Positions 10,811-54,027 of a stretch of DNA of 64,000 nt are shown one piece after another. How positions within the stretch are numbered: position 1 is the stretch's first letter; the number at the start of each line of letters is the position of its first letter. The DNA lies in IMG/VR virus record IMGVR_UViG_3300034954_001721; one strand, 5' to 3'. The notes beneath the pieces were generated by a model. It was not told the origin of the DNA, made no database searches, and saw only the letters and a list, made by a program, of their open reading frames with translations. The position numbers and the translations under genes were made by a program. This DNA is from a virus.

Positions 10811-12492
10811 TGAATGTTATTGGACTTTATGGTGCGATTGGTTGGAATGTTCTAATTTCAGACAATCCAAAACTTCGTGAGCAGATGAATGATAGTTGGA
10901 CGCATGGTGCTAGTGTGTCCCTATTTTCTGATGGAAATCATGTTGTTAGTATTAGTGAAGAACGACTCAGTGGTATTAAATATGATGGAAATTTTCCGCG
11001 TAAGTCAGTAGAATATTGTCTATCTACAGGCAATCTTTCTAAAGAAGATATTGATGTAGTCATTGTTCCATCGATGGCTAATCAAAATTTCTATAAGAAT
11101 TACATCAATAAAACTATTGAAAAGAAAGTTAAAAGATATTTTCCAAAAGCAAAGGTAGAGATTGTATCGCACCATATGTGCCATGCATATTCTTCCGTAT
11201 TTTCATGTGATCATAACGAAGGATCTTTCATTACATTAGATAATGCTGGTTCTGTCCTGTTTGATACCACAGGAAATGTCTTTGCTTGTGAGAATCATTC
11301 ATTTGGATACTTCAATAAAGAGAAAGGTGTCTTCAAGTATTATCCTGGTATTCCAATGACTAATAATTTTGGAAATTACTATTGGATGTGGGCGTATAAT
11401 ATCTACACCCAGATGGTACAAAAACCAATTGAACTTACTGATCCAAAGTATCGTGAAACATTCTGTGGTAAGGTGATGGGTCTTTCTGCTTATGGAAATA
11501 TAAAAGAACCCAAGAAAGATTGGAGACTTCACTTTGAGGGAATTCCACAAGTAGCACTGGAGTCTTTACCTGGTCGTGATTTTAATTATGGTAATCTTTC
11601 TGCCGAAAATAAAGCAAAGCAACTTCAATATAACTTTGAAAATGCAATGCTTGAATGGATGAAGCAACTCAAAGAACAAGGGTATATTGAGGATAATCTT
11701 TGCCTTGCCGGTGGAGTATTCCTTAACATCCTTGCAAACTCTGTTCTTCGTAAGAATGATATTGCAAAGAACATGCACATTCCACCATTCCCTGATGATA
11801 CAGGACTTTCATTCGGTGCAGCTTGTTATGGTGCATTCAAGGCAAAAGAAAAGGTAACTCTTCCACATAACATTTCACTTCTCGGACGCACTTATAGTGA
11901 TGAAGAGATTGAGGAAGCACTTGAGGGCATTGAGTATAAGAAGTTTGATACCTTTGAGGAATTGTGTGATAAGACTGTAAATGTTCTTGCCGAGAATAAG
12001 ATTGTTGGTTGGTTCCAGAACCGTTCAGAGTTTGGTCCAAGAGCACTTGGTTCTAGGTCTATCCTTATGAATCCCACACCAAAGAAGAATAAGGAGACAA
12101 TAAATACTCGCATCAAACACAGAGAGGAATGGCGTCCGTTCGCAGGTATTATGCTTGAGGAATATCAAGATGAATACTTCATGGATACATATCCGAATGA
12201 ATATATGCTATACTCTTTAGTTGTAAAACCACATCAAAGAAAGAAACTCGGTGCAATTACACACAAGGATTTCTCTTGTAGAATTCAGACTGTGAATAAG
12301 AAGTTGCATCCAGAAGTTACCACACTCCTACAAAAATATAATGAGAAGACTGAATGCCCAGTTCTCCTCAATACATCTTTCAATGATAATGGTCAACCAA
12401 TCGTAGAAACTCCAAAGGATGCGGTTAAAACCTTTAAAAACATCGATTTGGATTATCTTGTGATTGGTAACTATCTTGTAGTAAAACAGTAA
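10810..12492 (+). CDS. Carbamoyltransferase (NodU/CmcH/TobZ family)
   Basis: SEERLSGIKY, HHMCHAYS, GKVMGLSAYG, AGGVFLN, PPFPDDTG, EFGPRALGSRS, IKHREEWRPFA, LLNTSFN. Confidence 0.92.
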   Translation: MNVIGLYGAIGWNVLISDNPKLREQMNDSWTHGASVSLFSDGNHVVSISEERLSGIKYDGNFPRKSVEYCLSTGNLSKEDIDVVIVPSMANQNFYKNYINKTIEKKVKRYFPKAKVEIVSHHMCHAYSSVFSCDHNEGSFITLDNAGSVLFDTTGNVFACENHSFGYFNKEKGVFKYYPGIPMTNNFGNYYWMWAYNIYTQMVQKPIELTDPKYRETFCGKVMGLSAYGNIKEPKKDWRLHFEGIPQVALESLPGRDFNYGNLSAENKAKQLQYNFENAMLEWMKQLKEQGYIEDNLCLAGGVFLNILANSVLRKNDIAKNMHIPPFPDDTGLSFGAACYGAFKAKEKVTLPHNISLLGRTYSDEEIEEALEGIEYKKFDTFEELCDKTVNVLAENKIVGWFQNRSEFGPRALGSRSILMNPTPKKNKETINTRIKHREEWRPFAGIMLEEYQDEYFMDTYPNEYMLYSLVVKPHQRKKLGAITHKDFSCRIQTVNKKLHPEVTTLLQKYNEKTECPVLLNTSFNDNGQPIVETPKDAVKTFKNIDLDYLVIGNYLVVKQ

Positions 12493-12496
12493 TCTT

Positions 12497-12733
12497 ATGA
12501 AATTTTTAGTATATTCCAAAAATGGATGTCCATATTGCTATAAAGTAATGTCGGTGTTAGAGATGACTGGTAATCAGTTTGTTGAGTATAAACTTGGCAG
12601 AGATTTTACAGGTCAAGAATTCTATGATAAATTTGGAAAAGGTTCTACTTTTCCACAAGTTCTTTGTGATGATAAAAAACTAGGAGGATGTGTTGACACC
12701 ATTCAGTTTCTCAGAGAAGAAAAAGTTATCTAA
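12497..12733 (+). CDS. Glutaredoxin
   Basis: CPYC active site, TFPQV, LGG. Confidence 0.9.
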   Translation: MKFLVYSKNGCPYCYKVMSVLEMTGNQFVEYKLGRDFTGQEFYDKFGKGSTFPQVLCDDKKLGGCVDTIQFLREEKVI

Positions 12734-12929: not shown

Positions 12930-13157
12930 ATGTTAGCAGTAAGTTTAGTCTTTGGTTCATTTTTGACCATCCTGTTTCTTGTAGTGGGACTAATTGGAGG
13001 TTGGACTGCTAGAGAATATATGATGAATTATCGGGAAGTACCAAGACCTCACCCCGAAATGTTTGATAATCAGGGCAACCTGATTCCAGATGAGGTTATT
13101 GCATTTAATTTTGAAAACTATTATGACGACAGCGAAGAAGACGACATCAACGAATAG
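12930..13157 (+). CDS. Conserved cyanophage membrane-anchored hypothetical protein
   Basis: N-terminal TM helix, HPEMFDxxGNLIPDE motif, GAGG SD. Confidence 0.65.
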   Translation: MLAVSLVFGSFLTILFLVVGLIGGWTAREYMMNYREVPRPHPEMFDNQGNLIPDEVIAFNFENYYDDSEEDDINE

Positions 13158-13743
13158 AAAAAAGACAACTACTTCAAAACCAAAAACAATTGCAAGAAAG
13201 AGTCAATCTATTCCCGACCTCCCTGCAAATCCTTTTATCTTTGAGATTTTTGATTTGTGTGGGAAGCAGCGTAGTTCTGCTAAAAAAGTAGAAGTACTTC
13301 AAAAGTACTCCCATCCTTGTTTGAAAACTATCTTCATCTGGAACTATGATGAAAGTGTAGTTTCTATTCTTCCTGCAGGAGATGTTCCATATGCTGCTGT
13401 AGATGAGATGGATTCTTTCAAGGGCACTCTTTCTGAAAAGATTGCAGATGCTGTAGAAAAAATGGGTGAAATGGGAAGTCGTTCACTTGGTTCTCAAGAT
13501 CAAGGTCAGACATCTCTTCGTAAAGAGTATACAAAGTTTTATAATTTTGTAAAAGGTGGTAATGATGCACTGAGTTCTCTTCGTAAAGAGACTATGTTTA
13601 TCAACCTTCTTCAAGGTCTTCATCCACTTGAAGCTGAGATTGTATGCTTGATTAAAGATAAAAAACTTGAAACAAAGTATAAGATTACTAAAGATGTAGT
13701 CTCTAAAGCATACCCTGATATTCAATGGGGTAATCGTTCTTGA
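13123..13743 (+). CDS. Conserved T4-like cyanophage hypothetical protein
   Basis: ATG 13123; motifs LPxGDVPY and RKETMFINLLQGLHPLEAE. Confidence 0.65.
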   Translation: MTTAKKTTSTNRKKTTTSKPKTIARKSQSIPDLPANPFIFEIFDLCGKQRSSAKKVEVLQKYSHPCLKTIFIWNYDESVVSILPAGDVPYAAVDEMDSFKGTLSEKIADAVEKMGEMGSRSLGSQDQGQTSLRKEYTKFYNFVKGGNDALSSLRKETMFINLLQGLHPLEAEIVCLIKDKKLETKYKITKDVVSKAYPDIQWGNRS

Positions 13744-13756
13744 TCGGAGTTTTATT

Positions 13757-14116
13757 ATGAATAAAGAAGTTACAGAGGTGTCCACAGAGACATCTGTGGA
13801 GAAGAAACCTATGTATTCTTGGACACAATCAGAAAAAGATAACTCCAAAAAACTTTATGGAGTTGAAATTATGATTGAGAATGGCACACTGGAGCAAGTC
13901 AAGACAAAAGACTGTCCTAATGATGCCAGGATTGTTACTTATGAGGTTGATGGTGAAATCAGATATGATTTGACTCGTAGTCAAAAAGCAGTCAATATTT
14001 TTGATATGTACTATGATAAATTTGGTAAGAGTTTAAAAGATATTCAGTTTGGTGAAGGGAGACACAATCCTAAACTCTGGGGGATTCAAGCACCCAAAAC
14101 CAAAAAGAAGAAGTGA
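13757..14116 (+). CDS. Conserved cyanophage hypothetical protein
   Basis: GGAG SD; IFDMYYDKFG motif. Confidence 0.6.
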   Translation: MNKEVTEVSTETSVEKKPMYSWTQSEKDNSKKLYGVEIMIENGTLEQVKTKDCPNDARIVTYEVDGEIRYDLTRSQKAVNIFDMYYDKFGKSLKDIQFGEGRHNPKLWGIQAPKTKKKK

Positions 14117-14176
14117 TTTCCCAGATCGGGGGAAAAAATTCCGGCAAAAATTTTGCTTCTTAAAGTTTTTTAAAAA

Positions 14177-14192
14177 TGTATCATAAGTTACA
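14177..14192 (+). promoter_or_regulatory. Putative NtcA binding site (tGTA-N8-TACa)
   Basis: TGTA TCATAAGT TACA, exact match to the cyanobacterial NtcA consensus, 8 nt upstream of a -35 box. Confidence 0.65.
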
Positions 14193-14199
14193 TAATTAC

Positions 14200-14228
14200 T
14201 TGACTACATAGTGTATAGGAGTTATAAT
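14200..14228 (+). promoter_or_regulatory. Host sigma70-type promoter
   Basis: TTGACT (14200-05), 17 nt spacer, TATAAT (14223-28); predicted TSS about 14234-14235. Confidence 0.8.
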
Positions 14229-14237
14229 ACTCTAGTA

Positions 14238-14281
14238 CGTTCATCCCACTCTTGGGTGGGACGCAAGTAAGTCGCGGAACG
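14238..14281 (+). ncRNA. Glutamine riboswitch aptamer 1 (glutamine-II / Downstream-peptide-like)
   Basis: CGTTC-A-TCCCAC[loop]GTGGGA-CGCAAG...GGAACG; P1 CGTTC/GAACG and P2 TCCCAC/GTGGGA pair; lies at the transcript 5' end upstream of a YRG peptide. Confidence 0.7.
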
Positions 14282-14284
14282 GAG

Positions 14285-14469
14285 CGTTCATCCCATGTTA
14301 ATAGAATCACTTCTATACGCAACACTCAATTGTCAAGATTCTGATGCGATTATGCTCAGGATCGCTAGACATGAATCTTTACCACCTAAGGTAAAGATTG
14401 AGTTGGTTGAGACCGTAAGGGAAGCAACCGAACCTGAGTGTTACTGGGACGCAAACGACTGAAGGAACG
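14285..14469 (+). ncRNA. Glutamine riboswitch aptamer 2 (glutamine-II-like) with an about 150-nt coding insert in the P2 loop
   Basis: CGTTC-A-TCCCA (14285-95) ... TGGGA-CGCAAA-CGACT-GAA-GGAACG (14445-69); same conserved halves as aptamer 1. Confidence 0.6.
14295..14462 (+). CDS. 55-aa hypothetical protein nested in aptamer 2 (MLIESLLYATLNCQDSDAIMLRIARHESLPPKVKIELVETVREATEPECYWDAND)
   Basis: Read by hand; GGAG SD at 14281-84; ATG 14295 to TGA 14462. Confidence 0.6.
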   Translation: MLIESLLYATLNCQDSDAIMLRIARHESLPPKVKIELVETVREATEPECYWDAND

Positions 14470-14504
14470 GGGCTAAAAATCCCTAGTATTTCAGGTAACG
14501 ACAA

Positions 14505-14672
14505 ATGAACACACTAACTCTCATCAAGAAGCAAATCGAGAAGGCAGCAGCACTGCATGACGCTCAGATCACTCACACATCATATCGTGGTGTTGAGTAT
14601 GATACTCGTTGTGTAGAAAGCAAAGAGTCACACGGCACTTTCTGCTATCGTGGTCACACTTATAACAAGTGA
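14505..14672 (+). CDS. DUF4278-like small protein with two YRG motifs (55 aa)
   Basis: MNTLTLIKKQIEKAAALHDAQITHTSYRGVEYDTRCVESKESHGTFCYRGHTYNK; YRGxxY is the DUF4278 hallmark and this family is the usual partner of glutamine-II riboswitches. Confidence 0.75.
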   Translation: MNTLTLIKKQIEKAAALHDAQITHTSYRGVEYDTRCVESKESHGTFCYRGHTYNK

Positions 14673-14679
14673 GGCAATT

Positions 14680-14775
14680 ATGCAAGCAATTCAAGTAGCA
14701 TCATTAGGTTCTATTTTTATCATTGCATTTCTTGGTTTACTTTACGGAGAACTCACACTTTTGCATAAGAGGTGA
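14680..14775 (+). CDS. 31-aa single-TM peptide (MQAIQVASLGSIFIIAFLGLLYGELTLLHKR)
   Basis: GAGG SD at 14671-74; hydrophobic core; ends before the terminator. Confidence 0.5.
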   Translation: MQAIQVASLGSIFIIAFLGLLYGELTLLHKR

Positions 14776-14790
14776 GAAAATTAATAATCA

Positions 14791-14817
14791 AAGAGGGGTT
14801 TCGACCCCTCTTTTTTT
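14791..14817 (+). terminator. Rho-independent terminator
   Basis: AAGAGGGGT-TTCG-ACCCCTCTT followed by a T run. Confidence 0.85.
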
Positions 14818-14848
14818 ATGCTATAATAAGTGCAGTGTATACACTATT

Positions 14849-15034
14849 ATGGACAAGGAACGACTAAAACTTATCGTTCGTAATCTTGAACTATTAGTTG
14901 ATGGATTGAAAGCAGAAGTTTACTCTGATCCAAGTGCTTACATGGATAAAAGAGAAAACTTTGATGATCCAGCACATTATTACAAAGCAGACTACGACGA
15001 GGTATTCAACGATGACGACGGGTATCCCGACTGA
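14849..15034 (+). CDS. Conserved cyanophage hypothetical protein (MDKERLKLIVRNLELLV...)
   Basis: ATG 14849 downstream of TGCTATAAT (extended -10 at 14819-27); the longer 14723 start would cross the terminator. Confidence 0.6.
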   Translation: MDKERLKLIVRNLELLVDGLKAEVYSDPSAYMDKRENFDDPAHYYKADYDEVFNDDDGYPD

Positions 15035-15191
15035 ACGGGCAAGAAAGTATATGAAATTGCTTCGCAGATTGGTGAAGCAAGAACATCTTTATACAGAAGA
15101 AAAACTGATTGAGATGAAGAAACAATTGCGGGTTTTAGAAGAAGAGCTTGCTGTGCTAGAATCAAAAGTGTCAAAAGGATTTGGTAAATGA
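15012..15191 (+). CDS. Conserved cyanophage hypothetical coiled-coil protein
   Basis: ATG 15012; ends SKGFGK overlapping the thyX start. Confidence 0.5.
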   Translation: MTTGIPTERARKYMKLLRRLVKQEHLYTEEKLIEMKKQLRVLEEELAVLESKVSKGFGK

Positions 15192-15823
15192 GTGTAAAAC
15201 TGATCAGTGTAACTCCCGATGCGGAGAAGATGATGGCATACGTTGCTCGTGTGTCAAACCCCAATAACCAGGAAAACCCTAACTACGCAAAATTATTGGG
15301 TTACTGCATTAAGCACAACCACTGGTCTGTGTTTGAGCAGGCATTTATGACTCTGGAACTTCAAACTACCAGAGGGGTGGCGGCTCAAGTGCTCCGGCAC
15401 CGTTCGTTCACATATCAAGAATTTTCGCAACGCTATGCTGACAGTTCTATGTTGGCAGAACGTATTCCCCTTCCAGAACTTCGCAGGCAGGACACTAAAA
15501 ATCGCCAGAATTCTATTGATGATATTGATCCCTTTGTGAATCAAGAGTTTCAAATCAAAATGGAAAATCATTTCCAAGAAGGTATGAAACTCTATCAAGA
15601 GATGCTTAAATATGGCATCGCAAAGGAGTGTGCTCGTTTTGTGCTTCCTCTTGCCACACCCACCAGAATTTACATGTCTGGTTCATGTCGCTCATGGATT
15701 CATTATATCAATCTCCGTACTGCTAACGGCACTCAGAAAGAGCACATGGACCTTGCAGAAGGTTGTAAGAAAGTGTTTATTGAGCAGTTTCCAACTTGTG
15801 CAGAAGCCCTTGAGTGGGTCTAA
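15188..15823 (+). CDS. thyX: Flavin-dependent thymidylate synthase
   Basis: HWSVFEQ and the ThyX motif RHRSFTYQEFSQRY; AKECARFVLP. Confidence 0.95.
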   Translation: MSVKLISVTPDAEKMMAYVARVSNPNNQENPNYAKLLGYCIKHNHWSVFEQAFMTLELQTTRGVAAQVLRHRSFTYQEFSQRYADSSMLAERIPLPELRRQDTKNRQNSIDDIDPFVNQEFQIKMENHFQEGMKLYQEMLKYGIAKECARFVLPLATPTRIYMSGSCRSWIHYINLRTANGTQKEHMDLAEGCKKVFIEQFPTCAEALEWV

Positions 15824-53789: not shown

Positions 53790-53861
53790 GGGACTATCGC
53801 ATATTGGTTAATGCCCACTGCTTATAACGGTGTGAACTGGGTTCAATTCCCAGTAGTCCTA
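53790..53861 (+). tRNA. tRNA-Ile (anticodon UAU)
   Basis: Acceptor GGGACTA/TAGTCCT, D arm GCAT/ATGC, anticodon arm CACTG-CT TAT AA-CGGTG, T arm CTGGG-TTCAATT-CCCAG. Confidence 0.85.
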
Positions 53862-53864
53862 TTT

Positions 53865-53937
53865 GCTTCCTTAGCAATCTGGTGAATGCAGCAAACTCAT
53901 AATTTGCCTAAGGAGAGTTCGATCCTCTCAGGAAGCA
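53865..53937 (+). tRNA. tRNA-Met (anticodon CAU; elongator Met, Ile2 not excluded)
   Basis: GCTTCCT/AGGAAGC, GCAAA-CT CAT AA-TTTGC, GAGAG-TTCGATC-CTCTC. Confidence 0.85.
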
Positions 53938-53942
53938 CCTAA

Positions 53943-54027
53943 GCGAGTGTGGCGGAATCGGTAGACGCACCAGACTTAAAATCTGTTGGGAGTTAATCCC
54001 GTGGGGGTTCAAGTCCCCCCACTCGCA
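53943..54027 (+). tRNA. tRNA-Leu (anticodon UAA)
   Basis: GCGAGTG/CACTCGC, CAGA-CT TAA AA-TCTG, long variable arm, GGGGG-TTCAAGT-CCCCC. Confidence 0.9.

Follow-up and report, generated by a model that had tools for sequence, protein, structure and literature searches.

Positions 14238–14469 (plus strand) of a 64,000-nucleotide (nt) stretch of viral DNA, IMG/VR record IMGVR_UViG_3300034954_001721 (hereafter the window, meaning this whole stretch), hold two copies of a split glutamine-aptamer motif, the second of which surrounds an entire open reading frame (ORF). The window comes from a T4-like cyanomyovirus, and the motifs form the leader of a predicted small operon comprising ORF1 (14295–14462), ORF2 (14505–14672) and ORF3, with a promoter and a terminator as its bounds. 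Copy 1 consists of a 5′ half CGTTCATCCCAC (14238–14249) and a 3′ half GTGGGACGCAAGTAAGTCGCGGAACG (14256–14281), and copy 2 of a 5′ half CGTTCATCCCATG (14285–14297) and a 3′ half TGGGACGCAAACGACTGAAGGAACG (14445–14469), with a GAG linker (14282–14284) between the copies. A first-pass annotation had listed these features from the DNA letters, and all were found where it placed them, including AGTCG (14270–14274) and CGACT (14456–14460). Across the whole 64 kb, ACGCA-N5-16-GGAACG has two matches where 0.01 would be expected by chance, and CGTTCAYC-N10-30-CGCA has two where the expectation is 0.04; each pair of matches falls at this locus, and none of the shuffled windows gave two matches for either pattern.

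Two probable interleaved aptamer cores

More than 400 records of Synechococcus and Prochlorococcus phages contain sequence that can be aligned to 14236–14672, at about 75% identity. We collected about 120 IMG/VR loci by the junction GGAACGGAGCGTTCATC, added sets retrieved with one-sided variant patterns, and used an 82-sequence MAFFT alignment for pair counting. The arrangement of the four halves is revealed by one base pair. In solved structures (PMC6698751) the third base of the linking strand (CGCA in both copies here) pairs with the base after GGAACG, forming a linchpin (type II, C19:G41; type I, G:C). In all 83 loci picked solely because their first linking strand reads CGGA, the second GGAACG is followed by C and the first still by G; at least 55 of them (52 distinct when all loci are counted) clearly retain CGCA as the second linking strand, and about 20 more were mis-read by the pattern. 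This class has two Watson–Crick linchpin pairs in a nested fold and none in a tandem one. Because the swap runs across the copies and not within them, the outer core, of type I, joins the first 5′ half to the second 3′ half, and the inner, permuted core joins the first 3′ half to the second 5′ half; with the outer strands so paired, AGUCG/CGACU becomes P3 of the outer core. The first-pass reading of two glutamine-II aptamers lying side by side was not borne out, as the base following GGAACG covaries with the CGCA/CGGA strand of the other copy, and this linchpin covariation rules out the tandem arrangement as the conserved binding fold.

The Rfam glutamine-I model RF01739 itself takes the nested parse in four fully compact relatives (37.1, 41.4, 41.0 and 38.4 bits; cut-off 35), accommodating a 38–41-nt insert in P3, and the tandem parses fall below the cut-offs. 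AGUA occurs in the first half only and GAA in the second half only, on either side of P3, as in the type-I consensus. At gathering thresholds Rfam gave no match at 14238–14470 of the window; in E-value mode it picks up copy 1 alone, below threshold (RF01704, 28.4 bits, cut-off 33; RF01739, 26 bits, cut-off 35), so that the expected failure of a covariance model to see copy 2 did occur. RF01739 leaves the window's element undetected because its P3 insert of about 180 nt exceeds what the model tolerates, and the cyanophage module has been overlooked by scans because covariance models cannot bridge such inserts.

On sequence evidence, the outer core is a type-I (glnA-class) three-way junction formed by the first CGUUC, a short hairpin, CGCAAGUA, P3 and GAAGGAACG. 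Its P1 joins CGUUC (14238–14242), invariant in 82 of 82 aligned loci, to GAACG (14465–14469), a partner assigned through the linchpin covariation and the nested Rfam parse of the compact relatives. The P2 hairpin (14244–14261; UCCCAC 14244–14249, loop UCUUGG, GUGGGA 14256–14261) shows many compensatory stem variants in both compact and ORF-carrying forms, for example UCUCAC/GUGAGA in Synechococcus phage S-IOM18. The linking strand CGCA and the AAGUA 5′ half of the E-loop (14265–14269) follow, the whole of 14262–14269 agreeing with the type-I consensus CGGAAGUA, and lead into the P3 strand AGUCG (14270–14274), which pairs with CGACU (14456–14460). Beyond P3 the E-loop 3′ half GAA (14461–14463; AAA in about a third of relatives) runs into GGAACG (14464–14469), with 14461–14469 an exact copy of the type-I consensus GAAGGAACG, and the core closes on the linchpin C14264:G14470. 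G14470 does not vary in the window's family, and a first linking strand of CGGA always goes with C at this position; both linchpin bases switch to G:C in all 83 of the one-sidedly selected loci. Three structural features of RF01739 are present in the outer core: an E-loop whose halves flank P3 as in the consensus and the crystallised RNA, a three-way junction in which P2 and P3 covary and the invariant P1 strands are placed through the linchpin, and the linchpin itself.

Variants of P3 were sought on its upstream strand alone, leaving the downstream strand unselected. Upstream AGUCA is matched by UGACU or UGGCU in 28 of 28 loci, AAUCG by CGAUU in 7 of 7, AUUCG by CGAAU in 3 of 3 and AGUCU by GGACU, through a U–G wobble, in the one locus that has it; all 39 variants are therefore matched downstream, 38 of them Watson–Crick and 1 by the wobble. 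Compensated variants were already present in the first locus set, with further types such as AGACU/AGUCU, and across the 82 aligned loci P3 is 100% paired, two of its positions being altered on both sides. Positions 3 and 4 gave 0 variant loci with the window's flanks, and those pairs are judged from other families only. A second large family (loci L288–L405, for example L385, L386 and L393) came from linker-length scans whose chance matches were filtered by their flanks. Its P3 is 8 nt long, both strands reading AGCCGACU, a near-palindrome with two symmetric C.A mismatches and a last pair that alternates between U–A and A–U; its inner loops are 4 nt (GAAU, GGUU). Such symmetry may mean that a self-pairing unit was duplicated to give the element. 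Pair counting over the 82-locus alignment finds 94.8% of cells paired, against 34–49% with the partner slid, and 67 cells altered on both sides where shuffling gives 8.5; not one of 500 shuffles reached the observed value. The complementarity of AGUCG and CGACU proposed by the first-pass annotation is thus a helix, every one-sided variant being compensated; its proposed role as a lock between two separate aptamers has to be given up, since it is the P3 of the outer core.

Within P3 the sequence places a second, circularly permuted core, whose P2′ helix closes around the whole of ORF1. The P1′ hairpin (14276–14289) is formed by GGAACG (14276–14281, stem GAACG 14277–14281), the loop GAG (14282–14284) and CGUUC (14285–14289), and is present in the minimum-free-energy (MFE) structure from RNAfold. 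In relatives this loop is 3–6 nt, its first base almost always the linchpin G; here G14282 is the partner of C14452, and the inner pair remains C:G when the outer linchpin swaps. P2′ joins UCCCA (14291–14295), ending on the A of the ORF1 start codon, to UGGGA (14445–14449), inside the final codons of ORF1, and is followed by the linking strand CGCA and AA (14450–14455), conserved in all loci, with the pairing of C14452 taken from the linchpin covariation. Read in register after anchoring on CGTTCA and CGCA, P2′ pairs 1–5 are 99, 99, 99, 99 and 83% paired in 113 distinct loci, across spans of 150–200 nt. Position 4 is C–G in 86 of these loci, U–A in 19, U–G in 4, A–U in 2 and G–C in 1, with 1 mismatch, and its pairing falls to 9% when the partner is slid by one register; pair counting on the 82-sequence alignment bears the stem out. 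Covariation in related cyanophage loci therefore supports the long-range UCCCA/UGGGA stem that had been drawn around the ORF. The nucleotides that contact the ligand in PMC6698751 (C1, G2, G18, C39 and G40) are present in both cores, and glutamine binding itself is a prediction.

Reading frames in the aptamer loops

ORF1 has 55 codons (ATG 14295, stop UGA 14460–14462) and ends in W-D-A-N-D, its stop codon covering the last P3 base and the first two bases of the E-loop. Of 137 distinct sequences, 135 keep this frame open and none keeps either of the other forward frames open; indels are multiples of three throughout, and entropy by codon position (1.42, 0.98, 1.64) is greatest at the third. On these counts the nested frame is conserved as coding sequence, as the first-pass annotation had it. 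Its product matches phrog_504 (E 4e-24); searches of Pfam, NCBIfam and PDB sequences gave no family. An AlphaFold2 model folds it as a two-helix hairpin (predicted local distance difference test score 84), and Cys13 and Cys49 are invariant among relatives.

The frame is fitted closely to the RNA. Its stop falls at the same base in 106 loci, and in nearly all it starts in the P2′ 5′ strand and stops in the 3′ half. GGAG (14281–14284), at the linker, is the sole Shine–Dalgarno-like sequence upstream of the ORF1 ATG, in line with the original assignment. Four loci stop early at UAG and keep the stem pairing, and relatives that lack ORF1 have the same nucleotides; the WDAND tail is hence a translation of aptamer nucleotides, again as proposed, and protein constraint behind it is ruled out by the same observations.

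A second reading frame, of 65–68 codons, occupies the loop of the outer P2 in about a third of related loci, for example in S-IOM18 (locus L004, 388–626). Its stop (UAA, UGA or UAG) lies in the P2 3′ strand and covaries with the bases before its own AUG (UUA, UCA or CUA). This upstream-loop ORF, a member of phrog_6471, is distantly paralogous to ORF1 (hhalign 95%, E 3e-8). The second loop carries an ORF of 145–200 nt in nearly all loci, and the first is compact in about two-thirds and ORF-bearing in about one-third: 86 loci have a compact first loop with an ORF in the second, 40 have ORFs in both and 8 are compact in both, with 0 showing an ORF in the first loop only. The doubly compact loci show that an ORF-free form of the RNA exists, to whose loops ORFs were added, and these ORF-free relatives already contain GGAG and the entire inner core.

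By its conserved sequence the layout is common to hundreds of phages, on several hundred viral contigs. The nested junction pattern had 0 matches in 401 sampled cyanobacterial genomes, where a reversed control pattern gave 12 chance matches, and the junction may be a phage invention. A search of 596 Gb of bacterial genomes with a 14-base junction pattern was uninformative, returning chance matches only, none with the flanking motifs among the matches listed. On one contig (L528) a PhotoRC-II RNA (RF01717, 64 bits; 11262–11350, minus strand) stands beside the nested glutamine element.

The operon opens with a sigma-70-type promoter on the plus strand, TTGACT-17-TATAAT (14200–14228), which matches 11 of 12 consensus positions and is the best-scoring site within 13600–15300. 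Its −35 and −10 boxes are kept in aligned relatives, and the predicted transcript start, at about 14235, lies 2–3 nt 5′ of the first CGUUC. The final gene, ORF3 (14680–14775, plus strand), was taken from the ORF list; directly 3′ of ORF2 and ahead of the terminator, it encodes a 31-codon hydrophobic peptide that is kept in S-IOM18 (about 1021–1116 of its locus) and has no Pfam, PHROG, NCBIfam or PDB sequence match. The intrinsic terminator (14790–14820, plus strand) has a 10-bp stem followed by a T run. Neighbouring genes are nrdC glutaredoxin (12497–12733), thyX (15188–15823) and phoH (from 16098). Upstream, a 217-residue ORF (13090–13743) matches DUF6433 (E 3e-37) and the ORF at 13757–14116 matches phrog_485, both families whose function is not known. 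A cluster of three tRNA genes lies at 53790–54027 (60.6, 57.2 and 52.5 bits).

The downstream gene and a competing helix

ORF2 (14505–14672, plus strand) encodes 55 residues with two YRG motifs and resembles DUF4278 and IF17. Against Pfam DUF4278 (PF14105) it scores 24.4 bits (E 3.8e-5; cut-off 25.3), 38 of 40 homologues match the family at E ≤ 0.01 (best E 2.3e-7), and its PHROG match is phrog_545 (E 3e-36); a PDB search found no solved relative. The downstream gene is therefore DUF4278-like, as first suggested, and is most likely the gene controlled by the riboswitch. The DUF4278 domain occurs in IF17, a glutamine synthetase inactivating factor, and usually marks the gene that follows a glutamine riboswitch (PMC6212724); the short marine DUF4278 proteins are without the C-terminal residues that the Synechocystis protein requires to bind glutamine synthetase (Klaehn 2018, PMC6212724).

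Between the aptamer and ORF2 a competing, predicted OFF-state hairpin (14459–14494, plus strand) pairs CUGAAG (14459–14464) with UUUCAG (14489–14494) and encloses GGGG (14469–14472) and CCCU (14481–14484). It overlaps the aptamer fold at the last two P3 bases, the GAA of the E-loop and the leading G of GGAACG; with its 3′ strand it reaches into the ORF2 ribosome site (AGGAG in most relatives), covering it in part. The ORF1 stop varies between UGA and UAA, and the helix partner tracks it: CUAAAG occurs with UUUAG in 43 of 43 loci, never with C, and CUGAAG with UUCAG in 69 and UUUAG in 23. Pair counting in the 82 loci gives a central pair of G–C in 36, A–U in 31 and G–U in 15. The unconstrained MFE structure holds P1′, P2′ and the competing hairpin (z = −4.05). 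Two conserved, mutually exclusive helices, P3 with its E-loop on the one hand and CUGAAG:UUUCAG on the other, are what a switch requires. The same MFE structure pairs GUUCAU (14239–14244) with AUGAAC (14505–14510), the start and second codon of ORF2; of 82 related loci, 50 have an ORF2 that opens with AUGAAC and 5 one that opens with AUGAAU, and this modelled pairing could be an extra OFF-state contact that masks the ORF2 start codon.

Known glutamine riboswitches ahead of gifB and DUF4278 genes are ON switches (Klaehn 2018, PMC6212724; Huang 2019, PMC6698751). By analogy, glutamine would stabilize both cores, take CUGAA out of the competing pairing and unblock the ribosome site of ORF2, turning ORF2 on. 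The folded inner core would at the same time tie up the GGAG of ORF1, distributed over the last P1′ pair, the linchpin G and a two-base turn, and would hold the A of its AUG as the last P2′ base (14295); with both sequestered, glutamine would be expected to lower ORF1 initiation. Glutamine would thus probably act on the two genes in opposite senses, inducing the DUF4278 gene and shutting off the start site of the nested one. The reciprocal control of ORF1 and the downstream peptide suggested by the first-pass annotation is plausible on anatomical grounds. Conversely, ribosomes on ORF1 would block formation of both cores, and one terminating at UGA 14460–14462 would open the competing helix. 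A more elaborate version, which we put forward tentatively and would not bet on, is a device with two outputs and two inputs, in which two glutamine sites and ribosome traffic on ORF1 choose between the exclusive folds: ORF1 would be off and ORF2 on at high glutamine, and at low glutamine ORF1 would be on with ORF2 opened transiently by terminating ribosomes. The P2 loops would then be landing sites into which a two-cysteine gene was copied more than once, in phages only so far.

Competing explanations and known riboswitches

Taken together, the locus is probably best explained as the leader of an early cyanomyovirus operon, folded as a nested double glutamine aptamer with a competing helix and with ORF1 inside the inner core. 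Several observations weigh against this explanation or parts of it. The linchpin bases of the window's own family (C, G, C, G) are compatible with nested and tandem folds alike, so the nested assignment of the window is carried over from sister families, and a transient tandem fold of the compact copy 1 is possible; RNAfold, given a transcript ending at 14504, picks just such a local copy-1 pairing. The outer and inner P1 helices are invariant and hence carry no covariation signal of their own. By nearest-neighbour energy the nested state (−73.9 kcal/mol) lies 13.6 above the competing-hairpin state (−87.5 kcal/mol), a gap to be taken as a caution and not as a test, because the model leaves out the E-loop, base triples, Mg2+ and ligand. 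P1′ and P2′ also belong to the predicted ligand-free structure, which would make any glutamine effect on ORF1 a matter of degree. The median dN/dS of ORF1, the further check on its coding status, is 0.56, a measure of limited use with dS near saturation, and indicates moderate protein constraint only. Finally, the ORF2 ribosome site of the window is weak (AGGU), against AGGAG in 75 of 82 relatives.

The strongest alternative accepts the architecture and takes the ORFs as passengers: P2 and P2′ would tolerate insertions, translation of ORF1 would be independent of glutamine (for instance because it is co-transcriptional) and only ORF2 would be regulated. The spread of relatives with no, one or two loop ORFs (8, 86 and 40 loci) fits this, as do the ORF-free forms, in which GGAG and the inner core are present and so evolved for other reasons than ORF1. 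The paralogy of the inserts suits cassette copying between two equivalent loops, and about 150 nt are transcribed between the ORF1 start site and the strand that closes P2′. The tight register of the ORF1 start and stop with the stem suggests more than tolerance, although genome compaction could produce it too, and the pairing of the upstream-loop stop codon with the bases preceding its AUG also speaks against mere passengers. We regard this account as unlikely.

Still less probable, in our judgement, are two separate tandem aptamers of glutamine-II type, each pairing its own CGUUC with its own GGAACG and using AGUCG/CGACU as a P2 shared between them. Such aptamers would explain the Rfam score of compact copy 1 alone and the spacing AGUCG-C-GGAACGG, which resembles the type-II order of P2 5′ strand, 1 nt and pseudoknot strand (PMC6698751); the linchpin bases of the window's family and the local copy-1 pairing in RNAfold are equally in their favour, and assembly of a glutamine-II aptamer from two pieces in vitro is known. 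Under this scheme, however, the linchpin bases G, G, C, C seen in at least 52 distinct loci would form G.G and C.C mismatches, where nesting gives two Watson–Crick pairs; the conserved AGUA and GAA halves of the E-loop would have no role; the 2–3 nt after the linchpin G in the inter-copy linker would have to span a P3 of 5–8 bp; and Rfam places every tandem parse under its gathering cut-offs and the nested parses above.

Promoter–stem-loop cassettes in T4-type phages have been proposed as boundary signals for recombination or processing. That the conserved halves are boundary repeats of this kind, flanking small gene cassettes, and not ligand sensors, is very improbable: motifs of about 10 nt are indeed shared as flanks of two paralogous ORFs and ORF content differs among phages, but the glutamine-contacting nucleotides are all kept in both cores, the helices covary for pairing and not for sequence, compact relatives exceed the cut-off of Rfam's curated glutamine model, and the downstream gene is the classic riboswitch-linked DUF4278.

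Compared with known systems, the nested double aptamer is closest to glutamine-I (RF01739; the gifB leader of Synechocystis PCC 6803, PMC6212724), whose order CGUUC, A, P2, CG(C/G)AAGUA, P3, GAAGGAACG, linchpin is that of the outer core. The crystallised type-I RNA (AAGUAAGGCCC...GGGCCUGAAG; PMC5393176) has an E-loop of 23-GAAGUAA-29 and 50-UGAAGC-55, to which CAAGUAA (14264–14270) and UGAAGG (14460–14465) correspond in the window. The first two P3 pairs, A–U and G–C, are also shared, as are the DUF4278/IF17-like gene and a likely logic in which binding undoes an inhibitory helix close to the ribosome site. Unlike glutamine-I, the P3 of the window encloses a second core and a gene (about 180 nt) instead of a short hairpin, the linchpin of its family is C:G, the glutamine-II identity, and not G:C, and the insert hides it from the Rfam model. 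With glutamine-II (RF01704, PMC6698751) it shares the binding-site nucleotides CGUUCA, CGCA and GGAACGG, the equivalent of the C19:G41 pair, a position before short DUF4278 peptides (found in marine picocyanobacteria in the case of type II), and the 28.4 bits of compact copy 1; a two-piece version of that aptamer assembles on glutamine. Copy 2 has no RF01704 score at all, and the inner unit of one compact relative reaches 34 bits (cut-off 33). The window differs from type II in having no P2 hairpin that continues from the pseudoknot strand, strand pairings that are nested and not pseudoknotted, and an E-loop, absent from type II. No local P2 3′ strand for an H-type pseudoknot follows either GGAACGG, and CUGAAG:UUUCAG leaves a 24-nt loop (14465–14488) around GAACG, with about 18 nt from the linchpin G to the 3′ strand.

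Like tandem riboswitches, such as tandem glycine and the glutamine doublets of PMC9481103, the leader has two homologous cores, probably giving a steeper or combined response. A 2022 survey classed 157 glutamine doublets as side-by-side tandem units, each with its own expression platform (PMC9481103); unlike those doublets, the cores described here are interleaved (5′a, 3′a, 5′b, 3′b, with a pairing with b and b with a) and share one helix and one downstream platform. A gene lodged in the terminal loop of a helix whose closure is needed for folding recalls group I and II introns that carry homing-endonuclease or maturase ORFs, with the differences that the host RNA here senses a metabolite and belongs to an mRNA leader, that the start and stop codons of ORF1 belong to the sensor helices, and that its product bears no sign of a mobility enzyme. 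Glutamine riboswitches are already known in cyanophages (PMC9964418), two glutamine aptamers having been counted in their genomes in a 2017 census that judged phages rare users of riboswitches (PMC5473149). We found no description of the nested topology, or of genes inside a glutamine aptamer, in the literature searched, which did not cover the figures of Ames and Breaker 2011.

The arrangement indicates that an aptamer can be built from interleaved strands hundreds of nucleotides apart, with a permuted copy of itself inside one of its helices. It also places whole protein genes in aptamer stem-loops, with the sensor incorporating their start and stop codons, an architecture unlisted in the survey of tandem riboswitches (PMC9481103). 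More than 400 cyanophage records carrying the module alter the picture of how frequent riboswitches are in phages. An early phage operon with an IF17-like protein would be tied by it to the glutamine level of the host, making the sensing of host nitrogen status by phages directly testable.

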